From positions 6,140 through 70,139 of the forward strand of contig MNRL01000010.1 of assembly GCA_001915925.1 (NCBI GenBank): a stretch of 64,000 nt of DNA, given 5' to 3'. The translations under genes and the position numbers were made by a program. Shown here one piece after another: positions 58,204 through 63,470 of this stretch. The notes below the pieces were generated by a model. The model saw only the letters and a program-made list of their open reading frames with translations. It was not told where the DNA came from and did not search any database. Position 1 is the stretch's first letter, and each line of letters begins with the position of its first letter. This DNA is from Clostridium sp. CAG:354_28_25. GTDB lineage: Bacteria > Bacillota > Clostridia > TANB77 > CAG-508.

Positions 58204-58965
58204 ATGGAACTAATAATACCAGCGGTTGTAATAGTCTTAATAATGTTTATCTTCACATTCTTTATGTTTAAGAATTTAGTAAAAAGAATAAATAATAGTA
58301 CTAAAAAGTACTTCTTAGATAAACTACAAGATTTTGACTATATAATAGCTGAAAAAGAAAAAGAAATAGAAATATTATCAGAACAAATTAAACGTTTAAA
58401 TGAAGCTAAGAAACATGGAGAAAATGGGGAAATTGTAGAAATACCAGAAACTAAAAAGCCAGAAGAAAAAATCGTATACGATATCCCAACTCCAGAGTTT
58501 AGAGAGGCAGGATTCTTTAAGAATTACAAAGGTTTAAACAAAGAATTTGATGTTGATGAAGAAAAGATTCTAAAAGACTTTATAAAAATACACGAAAAAG
58601 ACGATACTACAGAATATAAAGAACTTTCAGCGTTTTCTAAATTATTTACACAAAATGCAATATATGAATCTTTAACACTAACACCAGAAGAACAATTAGT
58701 TTTGGTAGAGAGTGTATTAAACGAAAAGAATAAAAAATATGTAGAACCAATAGTTAAAACAATAAAGAATTTTAATGTTTTAGAAATGTTGGACAAAATA
58801 AAAGAAAGAATGGATAAAATATCTCCTACGATATATGTATATGTTGGTGGAGATAACAAAAATTATGATTATTTAAGTTCTAAAGTAAAAACACAGTTAT
58901 TTAAGAACATGTCTAAAGGTATTATTATAGAATACAAAGACAAATTATATGACTATAGTATATAA
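58204..58965 (+). CDS. ATP synthase b-like peripheral-stalk protein (N-terminal TM helix + coiled coil), unusually long (about 250 aa)
   Basis: Sits between the c and alpha genes. TM IIPAVVIVLIMFIFTFFMF followed by a charged helical region. The ATG at 58204 has RBS AGGTGA; the ORF track starts at the GTG at 58195. Confidence 0.45.
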   Translation: MELIIPAVVIVLIMFIFTFFMFKNLVKRINNSTKKYFLDKLQDFDYIIAEKEKEIEILSEQIKRLNEAKKHGENGEIVEIPETKKPEEKIVYDIPTPEFREAGFFKNYKGLNKEFDVDEEKILKDFIKIHEKDDTTEYKELSAFSKLFTQNAIYESLTLTPEEQLVLVESVLNEKNKKYVEPIVKTIKNFNVLEMLDKIKERMDKISPTIYVYVGGDNKNYDYLSSKVKTQLFKNMSKGIIIEYKDKLYDYSI

Positions 58966-58982
58966 GGAAAAAGGGTGAAGAA

Positions 58983-60332
58983 ATGAGCGAGCATATTAGC
59001 AATCTTGTAGAAAGTAAATTAAAGAAAATCAAAGAAGAAAAAAATGTGTTTGATACAGGAAAAGTAATTAGGCTAAAAGACTATATTATAGAAGTATCTG
59101 GTCTTGAAAATGTTACTTATTATGAAAAAGTAATAATTAGAGGCAAAGGTATGGGCTATGTTAACGAAATAAAGGAAAACTCTGTAATAGTAGCTGTTGT
59201 TAAAGAAGATGAGCCAATTAAAATTGGCGATACTGTAAATACAACAGGGGAAAGATTTAGAGCAATCTTCGCAGAAGAAGCTTTAGGTAGAGTTACAGAT
59301 TTATTCGGGGTAGATTTATTAACAGGTAGAGCGTTCGAAAAATTTAAGTATATAGACATAGAAAGACCAACTGTACCTATAATGGACAGAACTCCAGTAA
59401 ATAGACCAATGATGACCGGAATTGCTGGAATAGATTTAATATACCCAATTGGTAGAGGTCAAAGACAATTAATAATAGGTGACAAAAAAACTGGAAAAAC
59501 ACAAATTGCTTTAGATACTATAGTAAACCAAGGACGAATCATGAAAGAAAACTCAAATAAAAATGATATTATATGTATTTATATAGCAGTTGGTAAAACA
59601 AAGAAAGAAATAAAATCAATTTACAACGAACTATTAAGAAGAAATGCATTATCATATACAATGATAGTAGCAGCTACAAATGATGACAAAACTACAGTTC
59701 AAAGTTTAATACCATATGTAGGATTATCAATTGCAGAAGAACACATGATGCAAAAGAAAGATGTAGTAGTTGTAATAGATGACTTAAAAGCACATGCACA
59801 AAGCTATAGAGAAATAAGCTTAATATCAAACAAAGCACCAGGAAGAGAAGCTTATCCAGCAGATATATTCTTTTTACATTCAAGATTATTAGAAAAAGGA
59901 TGCCAACACAAATGTGGTGGATCTATAACAGTTCTTCCTATAGTAGAAACAAAAGGTGGAGATATAACAGACTATATTTCTACAAACATTATATCTATAA
60001 CAGATGGACAAATAGTTCTTTCTGAGAAACAATTTAAAAAAGGTCAAAAGCCAGCTATAAATTATGGTGTATCTGTTTCAAGATTAGGTGGAGCAGTACA
60101 AACAGAAAATATGAAAAAAATAGGTTCTAGTGTAAGACGTGAACTTCTAAGCTACTTAGAAACAAAAGAAGTATACGAACTTGCTAACATGGACGAAATG
60201 AGTCCAGAATTAAGAGAGAAAATGAGAAAAGGTAAATTAATAGAGCAAGCTCTAAGACAAGATAAATTTTCTCCATTGACACAAGATGAAATTAAAGAAA
60301 GATTCAAAATGTTAGGTGAGGATGCTAAATGA
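58983..60332 (+). CDS. atpA: F1 ATPase alpha subunit homologue (short, 449 aa)
   Basis: LGRVTDLFGVDL; YPIGRGQRQLIIGDKKTGKT (Walker A); CIYIAVGKTKKEI; APGREAYPADIFFLHSRLLEKG. All alignable to canonical alpha. Confidence 0.85.
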   Translation: MSEHISNLVESKLKKIKEEKNVFDTGKVIRLKDYIIEVSGLENVTYYEKVIIRGKGMGYVNEIKENSVIVAVVKEDEPIKIGDTVNTTGERFRAIFAEEALGRVTDLFGVDLLTGRAFEKFKYIDIERPTVPIMDRTPVNRPMMTGIAGIDLIYPIGRGQRQLIIGDKKTGKTQIALDTIVNQGRIMKENSNKNDIICIYIAVGKTKKEIKSIYNELLRRNALSYTMIVAATNDDKTTVQSLIPYVGLSIAEEHMMQKKDVVVVIDDLKAHAQSYREISLISNKAPGREAYPADIFFLHSRLLEKGCQHKCGGSITVLPIVETKGGDITDYISTNIISITDGQIVLSEKQFKKGQKPAINYGVSVSRLGGAVQTENMKKIGSSVRRELLSYLETKEVYELANMDEMSPELREKMRKGKLIEQALRQDKFSPLTQDEIKERFKMLGEDAK

Positions 60333-61123
60333 GAATAAGAAATGTAGTAAAAGTAATGAATTTTCATTCTTTACTTAGAGTAGACTCTGCAAGAAGAAAT
60401 GCTGAAAAGTATTTTGAATATGAAAAAGAAATTACAGATTTTGCAGACAATATACTAAATAATAGAAATTTAATATTAGATAAAAAAATATTAAAGTTAA
60501 ATAAAGAATATAAACCTTTAAATGTTTATATTGGAAATGATTTAGGTTTTTGTGGTAATTTTAATACAAATGTAAATGATTTAGCAAAAGCTGATTCAGA
60601 CATAGACAAAATTATTATAGGAAAGAAAATTACAAACGAAAAAAATAATGTAATTTTATCAATGACAAAGGATGAGTATCCAAGTAAGATAGGAGAGATT
60701 GAAGATATTTTGTATGATGCAATATTAAATGCAAAATATAGTGAAATAAATATCATCTATAATCATTATTATAATATAAGTAGAATCGAACTTAGAAAAA
60801 AGAAAATATTACCAATAGAAAACATAAGAGAAGAAGACTCACAAGAAAAGAAGCATCATATAGAAGACTTTGCAATAGAAGGAGATATCAATAGTATATT
60901 AAGAAACATAATTGTGCTATATTTATCTTATGAAATAAAAATTGCAACTGAAAATAGTTTTGCCTCTGAAAATATAATGAGACAAACAATTACAAAAGAA
61001 TCTTTAAAAAAATTAGATGAAATAGAAGAAGAAAATTTAAGAAAAGAAAGAAAAGAAATTAATAATAAGAATTTTAAAAAAGTCTTAGAAAACTTTACAA
61101 ATTTAAATTTTAAAGAAGAATAA
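60329..61123 (+). CDS. atpG: F1 ATPase gamma subunit homologue (divergent)
   Basis: YIGNDLGFCGNFNTNV (gamma ITSDRGLCGGFN) and C-terminal ASENIMRQTITKE (gamma RQAAITQEL). 264 aa, between the alpha and beta genes. Confidence 0.6.
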   Translation: MRIRNVVKVMNFHSLLRVDSARRNAEKYFEYEKEITDFADNILNNRNLILDKKILKLNKEYKPLNVYIGNDLGFCGNFNTNVNDLAKADSDIDKIIIGKKITNEKNNVILSMTKDEYPSKIGEIEDILYDAILNAKYSEINIIYNHYYNISRIELRKKKILPIENIREEDSQEKKHHIEDFAIEGDINSILRNIIVLYLSYEIKIATENSFASENIMRQTITKESLKKLDEIEEENLRKERKEINNKNFKKVLENFTNLNFKEE

Positions 61124-62571: not shown

Positions 62572-62854
62572 TGAAAAAGAAAATATTAAAGAGACTACAA
62601 GAAATGTAGCGAAAATGAATGTAAAAGTTTTAAACATACGAAAAGGATTAAAAAAATATGATAATGTTTCTATGATAAAAATTAAGAGTAAAAAATATAA
62701 TCTAAGTATCATGGAAGATTATCTACCAGTAATTGGAGAAATAGATGGCGATGTTGAGATAATTGCTATTGATAATTTTGTTAAGTTGACAAATATAATA
62801 GGATATTATATGCTTAAACATAATGAATTTAAATTATTTATAAAAGAGGAATAA
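62564..62854 (+). CDS. Small protein in the epsilon-subunit position (96 aa, predicted beta-sandwich-like). Candidate divergent F1 epsilon.
   Basis: Overlaps the beta stop by 8 nt. Pattern [44 protein letters not shown] weakly resembles the epsilon N-terminal domain. Confidence 0.4.
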
Positions 62855-62855
62855 A

Positions 62856-63470
62856 ATGTTAGATACAATACTTTACGAATTAAGCAAAGTTGCTTGGGTA
62901 TTGCCAATATTTTTAGGAATAATATTATTATTAAGTTTTATAATGTATTTAGTTACTAGAAAATTTAATATACACAAAAAAAGTGTAATGGTAAGTGGAA
63001 TGTTTATGGGACTTAGTAATAAGCAAATTATAATGATTATATCAATTTTTATAAGAACATTTTTAGTAATATTTACCGCTTGCATATATAGTAAAAGTAT
63101 ATTATTATATTTACTAATGATAGCTATTTCCTCTATAATATTTGCAATACTTAATTTAAAGAAAGCAATTTTAGAAATAGTAAGCACAAGTGCACAAATA
63201 GTAGCACTATATTTAATAAATATACTTACAAGTTATATGATAGAAGAAAGTTATGATACATATGTACTTGTAATAAAAATATGTTTAATTGTATTTTTAT
63301 TAGTATATGCAGTATATTTCTTCTTAAAGAATTTTGAAGATATTATTACGAACCACAAAAGGAGAACGGTTAATGAAGGAAGAAAAAGAAAATCAAAAGA
63401 AAAAAGAAGAGAAAACAAACTTAAAGGAAACAAAGGAAAAGAAAGTATCCAAGAAAGCAGTGAAAACTAA
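62856..63470 (+). CDS. Polytopic membrane protein (about 6 TM helices) with highly basic C-terminal tail. Unassigned; not a recognisable ATP synthase a subunit.
   Basis: Hydrophobic helices throughout. One intramembrane Arg (SIFIRTFLV) but no LRLFGN-type a-subunit motif. Confidence 0.45.
   Translation: MLDTILYELSKVAWVLPIFLGIILLLSFIMYLVTRKFNIHKKSVMVSGMFMGLSNKQIIMIISIFIRTFLVIFTACIYSKSILLYLLMIAISSIIFAILNLKKAILEIVSTSAQIVALYLINILTSYMIEESYDTYVLVIKICLIVFLLVYAVYFFLKNFEDIITNHKRRTVNEGRKRKSKEKRRENKLKGNKGKESIQESSEN

Follow-up and report, generated by a model that had tools for sequence, protein, structure and literature searches.

What is the product of a gene cluster that keeps the order of an ATP synthase operon and encodes no recognizable path for ions? 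The question is raised by positions 57946 to 63470 of a 64,000-nt stretch of DNA from Clostridium sp. CAG:354_28_25 (contig MNRL01000010.1), here called the window, in which seven open reading frames (ORFs) on the + strand are packed tightly or overlap. The ORFs, their Pfam matches and 80 loci examined for comparison agree on the order c, b, α, γ, β and ε position. This is the canonical atpE-F-(H)-A-G-D-C order without a separate atpH, as a preliminary description of the window had recognized; that description took the cluster to begin at 58204, however, and the gene for the c-like subunit (57946 to 58191) falls just before this point.

It is a mistake to read the locus as a slightly irregular operon for ATP synthase; what it encodes is a repurposed F-type machine that is not coupled to ions. 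Two features had escaped the preliminary description: the c-like subunit lacks the carboxylate, and the ATPase genes form the middle of what is probably a ten-gene operon, which also encodes a surface protein of giant size and two anchored proteins that are paralogs. The reading developed here, which we regard as probable, is that of an F-type-derived rotary ATPase which hydrolyzes ATP without ion movement and shares one operon with three single-pass ectodomain proteins. Searches of the full-text literature did not turn up the system anywhere, and mycoplasmas are to our knowledge the only known source of F1-like ATPases with a mechanical task in place of a bioenergetic one. Counts of species and loci given below come from a scan of one genome per GTDB species with the family alignment as query, examined at the level of loci rather than whole genomes; single loci are designated L001 and so on where they have to be told apart.

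The catalytic head and its shaft

The α-like subunit (449 aa; 58983 to 60332, + strand) and the β-like catalytic subunit (455 aa; 61204 to 62571, + strand) both match PF00006, with 236 and 229 bits, respectively. They reach 431 bits with the atpA hidden Markov model (HMM; cutoff 554) and 447.1 bits with the atpD HMM (cutoff 462.85). The γ-like subunit (264 aa; 60329 to 61123, + strand) matches PF00231 with 95.7 bits (cutoff 39.9) and aligns to canonical γ with an hhalign probability of 99% (E = 9e-19). In NCBIfam, α, β, γ and the c-like subunit all score best with canonical F-type models, and all remain below the equivalog cutoffs. Canonical F1 also outscores the G1-ATPase of Mycoplasma mobile (PDB 9io5), with 357-375 against 303 bits for β and 310-330 against 279 bits for α.

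The residues expected of a working F1 head are in place. α carries a Walker A motif (GDKKTGKT) and an Arg finger (SVSRLGG), found in 73 and 78 of the 79 family members, respectively, while β carries a Walker B motif (FIDNIYRF) and the DELSEED sequence, its Walker A being present in 77 of 78 members. Depending on the strictness of the pattern, the catalytic motifs of α and β are recovered in 53-78 of the 78-79 members. With an intact Walker A, catalytic Glu, Arg finger and DELSEED, the ATPase looks catalytically competent.

Other features set the head apart from its relatives. α aligns to canonical α from residue 2 to about residue 436 of ~505, so that some 60-70 C-terminal residues are gone, and the family median is 448 aa against 490-562 aa in the references. 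The window α is 39% identical to a Firmicute AtpA and the window β 40-43% identical to canonical β. Family members are at least 51% (α) and at least 56% (β) identical to those of the window, whereas canonical and N-type subunits share 36-43% of residues with them. Judged by these comparisons, the α/β set is a coherent and distinct F1-derived clade.

A rotor without its ion site

The c-like subunit (81 aa; 57946 to 58191, + strand; PF00137, 32.7 bits, cutoff 24) aligns with real c subunits at an hhalign probability of 96% (E = 2.5e-9). It retains a GxGxGxG helix 1, with the ring-packing glycines, and a cytoplasmic loop (RNPETK) that is almost invariant in the family; in canonical enzymes the c loop contacts γ and ε. 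To locate the ion site, 55 unique family sequences were aligned with the real c subunits of six annotated operons (those of Priestia, Limosilactobacillus, Mesomycoplasma and E. coli, and two of the N type). In the column of the essential Glu/Asp, which is D61 in E. coli, all six references have E or D; of the 55 family sequences, 33 have A, 11 have T and 11 have S, and the window c has Ala. Across the 82 c-like proteins of the family, which are at least 56% identical to that of the window, none has an acidic residue anywhere in the second transmembrane (TM) helix, TM2. By its sequence, then, the protein resembles a rotor component that forms a ring and has lost nothing but the ion site.

We know of no characterized c-type rotor, whether of F-, V- or A-type ATPases, that does not require the acidic residue in TM2. 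The other half of an ion path is absent as well: a locus-level search for an a subunit (PF00119-type match) found none in the cluster, its flanks, the longer contigs or the 80 loci. The absence of atpB and atpI upstream, where the preliminary description had placed an Fn3 protein, is borne out. Upstream in the window there is no atpH, atpB or atpI, and proteins of 1817 and 493 aa with weak Fn3 matches are encoded there instead. None of the three genes lies downstream on longer metagenome contigs with identical clusters either (L001, 114 kb); beyond the cluster, L001 encodes a TM protein of ~419 aa and then unrelated genes. On present knowledge of rotary ATPases, a carboxylate-free c together with the lack of an a subunit at these loci excludes proton or sodium coupling.

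The peripheral stalk

The gene after c (58204 to 58965, + strand) encodes a protein of 253 aa from its ATG, or 256 aa from a GTG at 58195. Its family comprises 74 clusters and has no Pfam domain and no NCBIfam match; a search of PDB sequences with the family profile returned nothing significant, and faint subunit-B HMM matches occur at the N-terminus of one homolog. Two blocks are conserved, an N-terminal one consisting of the TM segment and a helix and a C-terminal one of 150 residues, with a variable linker between them. An AlphaFold2 (AF2) model built on 18 diverse members, with a mean predicted local distance difference test score (pLDDT) of 79.7, shows three parts: residues 4-70 form a continuous TM and b-like helix, residues 72-99 are a disordered linker, and residues 100-253 fold into a globular domain of seven helices and a small sheet, the latter domain at pLDDT > 90.

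When this model was compared with the PDB by Foldseek, the top ~36 matches were all δ/OSCP subunits of F-type ATP synthases. The best was E. coli 6oqr_W (E = 9e-4, probability 0.99), and the others include chloroplast, Acinetobacter, Pseudomonas and Bacillus PS3 subunits, bovine and yeast OSCP, and the mycobacterial b-δ fusion 7njn_d; the alignments cover almost the whole δ chain. In sequence, the similarity of the family to four real δ subunits is weak (hhalign E = 0.0017). On the predicted structure, the 253-aa protein is a b-δ fusion, in which δ is fused rather than missing. The suggestion of the preliminary description that a long b-like protein had absorbed δ thus holds at the level of the fold, residues 100-253 matching δ/OSCP only among these top ~36.

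The cluster has a single b-type gene and no separate atpH. The N-terminal helix of α, which binds δ in canonical enzymes, is present, as the alignment of α from residue 2 indicates. The predicted peripheral stalk is a single membrane-anchored b-δ fusion whose matching α helix has been kept. It is very likely that the locus encodes a non-ion-coupled, F-type-derived ATPase with such a stalk.

The small protein and the membrane protein Mem

A small protein of 96 aa is encoded directly after β (62564 to 62854, + strand), where it occupies the ε position. In 79 loci this place is always taken by a member of its family, whose median length is 87 aa. The family has an invariant block, YNLL(I/V)MxDY(L/M)P(V/I)IGEIxG, which is colinear with the GILxxHxP motif region of ε. 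Alignment by hhalign to six real ε subunits (full length and N-domain, local and global) spans 64 columns but is not significant, with E = 0.25-0.28 against 0.54-0.68 for the reversed control. No match was found in Pfam, NCBIfam or PDB sequences. The label of ε given to this protein earlier fits its position and size but draws no match from any library; the protein is possibly a homolog of the ε N-domain.

The last gene of the core (62856 to 63470, + strand) encodes a polytopic membrane protein of 204 aa, here called Mem, with no match in Pfam or NCBIfam. Searches of PHROGs and PADLOC were uninformative for Mem, the small protein and the b-like protein. It had been described as having six TM helices; its AF2 model (pLDDT 71.9) has about five, followed by a Lys/Glu-rich cytoplasmic tail. 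A profile search of 1.84 billion representatives gave 324 clusters, and among the best 150 of these nearly all matches are full-length proteins of ~170-200 aa. As far as these matches tell, the Mem family is specific to the ATPase module.

The preliminary description had offered two identities for Mem, a highly divergent a subunit or something new, and had pointed to an Arg within the membrane. The second identity stands, since Mem forms a family of its own, and the first was rejected. No relation to a, AtpI or AtpQ/AtpR emerged: Foldseek against the PDB gave nothing significant (best E = 1.6), with a few a-subunit chains among the weak matches at E = 4-5; hhalign against six a subunits gave E = 0.17, where the positive controls c and γ reached 2.5e-9 and 9e-19; the exhaustive profile search was without signal, and Pfam matched none of ten distant members. 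The Arg does exist, as Arg67, but is not conserved, being R, Q or K in relatives. Mem may instead be the stator partner of b-δ beside the c-ring.

These results also bear on whether the enzyme could, after all, be a true ATP synthase or ATPase that translocates ions, with Mem as an extremely divergent a subunit and a c-ring that binds ions in a non-canonical manner. The canonical F-type gene order would suit such an enzyme, as would the presence of c, the b-δ stalk and γ, the ~5 TM helices of Mem, a number near that of subunit a, and the weak a-chain matches in Foldseek. Against this stand the 0 of 82 family c proteins with an acidic residue in TM2, a Mem that lacks both a conserved Arg and any profile or fold similarity to a, the scores of α, β and γ below their NCBIfam equivalog cutoffs, and the tie of the cluster to genes for surface proteins. 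An ion-translocating enzyme is, in consequence, highly improbable.

Three anchored surface proteins

The genes on either side of the core encode proteins that each have one N-terminal TM helix. The first gene of the module, giant (50942 to 56395, + strand), encodes 1817 aa with weak Fn3-type Pfam matches. Its product consists of an N-terminal TM anchor, a membrane-proximal domain of ~160 aa, an acidic linker rich in Gly, Ser and Thr, and a long β-rich array. The array gives weak Fn3/Ig-like signals, and homologs of the protein likewise have only weak Fn3-type matches in Pfam. The second gene, p490 (56450 to 57931, + strand), encodes 493 aa (Pfam fn3, E = 0.024) with a similar plan: an N-terminal TM anchor, a membrane-proximal domain in common with that of Giant, a low-complexity linker and Fn3-like domains. 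The third, tail, follows mem on the + strand and leaves the window (5' part at 63373 to 64000; start at ATG 63373 or ~63458). Most lineages have a Tail of ~240 aa, and L001 has one of ~419 aa. The protein begins with a charged extension on the cytoplasmic side, followed by a TM anchor and a membrane-proximal domain as in Giant and P490.

The membrane-proximal domain (~150 aa) relates the three proteins to each other. Between Giant and P490 its hhalign probability is 97% (E = 2e-11), and between Tail and either of the two it is ~90% (E = 1e-6). Beyond weak fn3, nothing in Pfam matches Giant, P490 or Tail, and there is no match in the PDB, PHROGs or PADLOC.

Such large extracytoplasmic proteins, encoded together with an ATPase, could be its cargo. 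The complex would then be an export or assembly ATPase resembling FliH-FliI-FliJ, seated on a platform of c-ring and 5-TM protein, which inserts, secretes or assembles Giant, P490 and Tail instead of moving them later. In favor of this view, α and β score well on FliI/SctN HMMs, and a b-δ fusion is the architecture proposed for FliH (bioRxiv 10.1101/2021.01.01.425057). The FliI/SctN scores of 160-228 bits are, however, far from the ~359-447 bits obtained with F1 models, and export ATPases are homohexameric, whereas the hetero-hexameric α/β set, DELSEED and a full γ resemble a torque generator. The module contains no homolog of the export gate (FlhA/FlhB/FliPQR). The three proteins have ordinary N-terminal signal-anchor helices suited to Sec/YidC insertion, and in some loci the core has no adjacent cargo gene. 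An export function of this kind seems unlikely to us. Formal membership of the type III/flagellar export ATPases failed for its own reasons: there are two distinct subunits, the FliI/SctN scores lie below cutoffs of 380-620 bits, and gate components are absent.

Distribution and variation of the module

The module is present in at least 103 confirmed species of gut Clostridia and Bacilli, from which 80 loci were kept. Most of these share the order giant, p490, c, b-δ, α, γ, β, small protein, mem and tail, with Giant (1730-2120 aa) as the product of the first gene, P490 at 440-570 aa and Tail (~240 aa) as the product of the last. The arrangement is not due to chance, because it recurs in 80 loci of different species. 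Divergent b-δ homologs (28-43% identity) checked on their contigs have a conserved module, and synteny holds even where b-δ identity drops to 25-28%. The genes that flank the module are not the same at different loci; SpoIVA/HU, PGI and HrcA/GrpE are examples.

The window is nearest to UMGS1570, with 95% identity in b-δ. Judged by record titles, the carriers are uncultured gut Clostridia, with Ca. Merdicola and a closed metagenome-assembled genome (MAG) of 1.70 Mb (OZ006978.1) among the others; many MAGs of Bacilli, such as bins named "Mycoplasma sp. CAG:472" and "Tenericutes"; and Erysipelotrichaceae and Lachnospiraceae. Lachnospiraceae bacterium G11 (FMWZ01000008.1) has an intact copy, and since this record is titled as a strain and not as a MAG, it may be an isolate that is open to genetics. 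Proteins of the family are very frequent in human gut assemblies, one of them (P0124) being indexed in 385 collection blocks. Three loci bear titles that fit poorly with these groups. L069 is named "Thermoguttaceae bacterium LCP21S3_D1" although its gene sizes are identical to those of the Roseburia MAG L067, and L046 and L060 are titled as "Muribaculaceae" MAGs; all three are probably mis-binned or mislabeled Firmicute contigs.

Conservation on this scale bears on the possibility that the locus is a decaying duplicate of an atp operon, which has lost atpB and atpH and is heading toward a pseudogene. Absent subunits, a truncated α and a c without its carboxylate are what decay might leave behind. 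The frames are nonetheless intact, the same architecture occurs in at least 80 species, and catalytic motifs are invariant while accessory proteins fall to 25-30% identity. The c-like protein keeps its family-wide identity of at least 56% to the window c and its invariant loop, and the family is common in human gut assemblies. This conservation effectively refutes decay, which we hold to be the least probable of all the readings considered.

The module also varies. In a subgroup of Bacilli, the γ gene has moved from the interval between α and β to the end of the cluster (L040, L041, L043, L045, L048, L049, L052, L062, L072 and L077-L089), and in several of these Bacilli-type loci the tail gene precedes c. 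The cytoplasmic parts of the module often bear long, lineage-specific and highly charged low-complexity extensions. Examples are the C-terminus of Mem (204 to 266 aa) and the N-terminus of Tail (~240 to 567 aa), both in the window (63350 to 64000) and L015-L018, the C-termini of α (to 829 aa in L038 and L064) and β (681 aa in L019), and the b-δ linker (to 385 aa in L036 and L039).

A possible actuator of surface proteins

How might an ATPase of this kind be used? Nothing can be pumped, and its work would therefore be mechanical. In the mechanism we propose, γ, the small protein and the c-ring would turn, driven by ATP hydrolysis, with b-δ and the ~5-TM Mem as the stator. With no path for ions, the output would be movement or conformational cycling in the membrane and not a gradient. 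The paralogous membrane-proximal domains of Giant, P490 and Tail would together form a base that receives this movement and actuates, in turn, the long array of Fn3-like domains at the surface. Candidate purposes are motility, adhesion and release, or the processing of a ligand. The suggestion that the surface array is actuated draws on precedent, because the F1-like ATPases of mycoplasmas work with surface machinery. We judge the chance that the ATPase actuates the co-encoded surface proteins to be even or slightly better.

A more specific form of the proposal is tentative, and on the whole we doubt it: the carboxylate-free c-ring would act as a transmembrane drive shaft, whose ATP-driven rotation, picked up at the outer face by the base of the three membrane-proximal domains, would move a surface filament of 200 kDa.

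Several observations weigh against actuation by a rotary machine. In Giant and P490, flexible low-complexity linkers run from the membrane-proximal domain to the Fn3 array and would transfer torque poorly. The linker of b-δ is disordered and varies from 30 to 160 residues across the family, which would make for a soft stator. The assignment of δ rests on a predicted structure, with a best Foldseek E of 9e-4 and a PDB profile search that had no significant match; the ε identity of the small protein rests on position and size only; Mem matches no known family and its place in the complex is inferred. The complex, its rotation and its contact with the surface proteins are predictions from genes and modeled folds. 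Finally, three loci (L041 from Clostridium sp. CAG:302, L055 and L070) consist of the seven-gene core only, in the order c, b-δ, α, β, small protein, mem and γ, and no BLAST-detectable gene for Giant, P490 or Tail stands beside it. The partnership of ATPase and surface proteins is accordingly not obligatory or not always in cis. In L041, the core is flanked by unannotated ORFs of 244 and 278 aa.

Core-only loci and a soft, variable b-δ linker would also suit a complex that does not rotate at all. It would then be an ATP-dependent switch or scaffold, tethered by a static c-ring and regulating, for instance, envelope signaling or turnover by conformations that depend on the bound nucleotide, with the surface genes only co-regulated; the b-δ linker and the disordered charged tails frequent on α, β, Mem and Tail have the look of a tether or hub more than of rigid motor parts. 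Against such a role, all rotary elements (γ, DELSEED, the Arg finger and the γ/ε-binding loop of c) are conserved, and synteny with three paralogous anchored proteins across Clostridia and Bacilli argues for physical partnership rather than co-regulation. We consider a non-rotary switch quite unlikely, somewhat more so than an export ATPase.

If the c-ring is indeed a drive shaft, gut Firmicutes with a cell wall would possess a rotary motor for the surface that runs on ATP; the gliding and MIB-MIP motors were believed to have no equivalent outside mycoplasmas. With this module, a counterpart of the mycoplasma F1-like ATPases is present in at least 103 species of gut Clostridia and Bacilli, both cultured and uncultured, some lineages of which are very common in human gut metagenomes, and it offers a lead on what a conserved surface protein of giant size does in these abundant bacteria. 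A c-ring that is unable to bind ions would further allow the mechanics of the rotor to be studied free of ion coupling.

Extent of the operon and neighboring genes

The DNA of the window is low in GC (25-33%) and uses the standard bacterial code. The genes of the module are separated by 80 nt at most and in places overlap: the start of γ overlaps the stop codon of α (ATGA), and the gene for the small protein begins 8 nt before the end of the β gene. Reading through the TGA stop of α by genetic code 4 was considered and rejected, as Trp is encoded by TGG in the long ORFs, none of which has an in-frame TGA, and α is of uniform length in the family.

A promoter-like site lies at 50873 to 50901 (+ strand; TTGAAA, 17 nt with TG, TAACAT; a match to the consensus only). 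It is the last such site before the end of a gene-free stretch of ~1 kb, and a strong ribosome-binding site (AGGAGAGGGAAAGG) stands between it and the ATG of giant at 50942. The operon probably starts here. No terminator-like site was found on the + strand from 50942 to 64000, and the operon probably spans ten genes, from ~50.9 kb to beyond 64 kb. The 54-nt gap between giant and p490 contains a perfect 10-bp hairpin (56409 to 56434, + strand; TAGGGGAATT-ATAGAA-AATTCCCCTA) that is not followed by a U-tail on the + (coding) strand. A role in the processing or stability of the RNA is possible, and the hairpin might set the ratio of the giant transcript to those downstream.

An origin of the module in a phage or a defense island was rejected, given the lack of significant PHROG or PADLOC matches, a uniform composition and variable housekeeping flanks. 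An ATPase gene of the AAA_14/DUF4143 type (48690 to 49895) lies ~1 kb upstream of the module, and a similar gene (8250 to 9569) directly precedes the core-only cluster of L055; this shared neighbor could be a coincidence or a marker of mobility.

The remainder of the window encodes RpoB, RpoC, a nonribosomal peptide synthetase (NRPS) and a histidine kinase, among others. The NRPS (1425 aa; 15528 to 19805, - strand) has condensation, adenylation, thiolation and terminal thioester-reductase domains, with the aureusimine synthetase AusA as its top NCBIfam match (654 bits, below the cutoff), and is adjoined by the histidine kinase gene (13493 to 15559). Between rpoC and the ATPase module, two large surface proteins of 1591 and 1270 aa are encoded on the + strand (35456 to 40231 and 40584 to 44396). 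Both have thioester (TED) and DUF11 repeat domains, the former also SpaA prealbumin-like domains; they have the look of covalent adhesins and are unrelated to Giant. A gene with a zeta-toxin domain follows at 44861 to 45703.

Comparison with known systems

The closest parallels in function are found in mycoplasmas, and they were compared through the NCBIfam α and β models and scores against PDB 9io5. The Type 3 or "F1-like X0" ATPase (MSC_0618-0624 / MMCAP2_0575-0581) is required for antibody cleavage by the MIB-MIP system (PMC3369863, PMC12994834). Like the module described here, it combines F1-derived α, β, γ and ε-like subunits with unrelated membrane proteins in a core of about seven genes. 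Both systems lack an a subunit, are presumed to use ATP without pumping and occur in host-associated low-GC relatives of the Firmicutes; large surface proteins adjoin both, and the mycoplasma system works with them. The two differ in gene order, which is 12-TM, 19-kDa, γ, ε, 87-kDa, α and β in Type 3, and c, b-δ, α, γ, β, small protein and 5-TM here. Type 3 has no c, no stalk and no N-terminal helix in α, whereas c, a TM-anchored b-δ and the α helix are all present in this module. The Type 3 cutoffs are missed by both α (MSC_0619, 308.6 against 520) and β (MSC_0618, 398.7 against 570). The hosts of Type 3 are mycoplasmas, and those of the present module are Clostridia and non-mycoplasma Bacilli that use genetic code 11. 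At the locus, no MIB or MIP genes were found, and the neighbors have no recognizable domains beyond weak Fn3, the locus and not whole genomes having been examined. Among the reference records, the 844-kb chromosome of Mesomycoplasma hyorhinis (NZ_LR214949.1, H1/L094) is filed as "plasmid 3"; it has two β-like places, a canonical operon and presumably an F1-like cluster, of which only the canonical operon was located.

Another example is the Type 2 or G1-ATPase, the gliding motor of M. mobile (MMOB1610-1670, PDB 9io5; PMC11864180). It, too, is an F1-like ATPase of the rotary type, thought to drive huge surface proteins (Gli123, Gli349 and Gli521), and its stalk-like component GliD is hypothesized to derive from a fusion of b and δ, in parallel with the stalk of the present module. 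The H1 helix is missing from G1-α and GliD is without a TM segment, in contrast to the α helix and TM-anchored stalk described here. G1-β has an N-terminal extension of ~250-290 residues that is absent from the 455-aa window β: the alignment of the latter covers residues 299-754 of 9io5_A, a chain of 784 aa, and begins at position 247 of the MMOB1670 model, which has 705 positions. The Type 2 cutoffs are missed as well by β (MMOB1670, 370.1 against 850) and α (MMOB1660, 386.4 against 600). If GliD did arise from such a fusion, the TM-anchored b-δ of the present module is a plausible intermediate form.

In sequence, the closest relatives of α, β, γ and c are the subunits of canonical F1Fo (atpIBEFHAGDC; Priestia megaterium, Limosilactobacillus oris and E. 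coli; L092, L093 and L095), with which gene order and catalytic and rotor motifs are shared. Compared with these enzymes, the module has no a and no AtpI, the carboxylate of c is lost and δ is fused to a shortened b. The C-terminus of α is ~60-70 residues shorter, ε is unrecognizable, and a 5-TM protein and ectodomain proteins have been added. The b-δ of mycobacteria (7njn_d, 7nkd_d), which is among the top fold matches, similarly joins a TM-anchored b-type helix and a δ/OSCP domain in one chain. It is, however, ~445 aa long with a long rigid b helix, is accompanied by a second subunit, b', and belongs to a proton-coupled enzyme, whereas the b part here is ~70 residues followed by a disordered linker. 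There is no sequence similarity between the two families, and their common architecture, as far as models can tell, is convergent or very distant.

The N-ATPases, with the order atpDCQRBEFAG and the additional AtpQ and AtpR (PMC2881411), are laterally spread second F-type operons alongside other ATPases, as the module presumably is too. They keep a and an ion-binding c, pump ions and have a different gene order. The cutoffs of their alt_F1F0 models are missed by β (403.5 against 752), α (359.3 against 750.5), γ (32.7 against 282) and c (13.9 against 130.85).

Set against these relatives, the system appears to be a functional Firmicute counterpart of the mycoplasma F1-like ATPases and a member of neither type, with a membrane sector that is more F-like than theirs. 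It has given up ion coupling and keeps a c-ring, an anchored b-δ stalk and the contact between α and δ, and thereby provides a natural intermediate on which the conversion of a proton turbine into a motor can be studied. If its c-ring acts as a drive shaft, it would be a living intermediate on the way from the F1Fo ATP synthase to the gliding and MIB-MIP motors of mycoplasmas.

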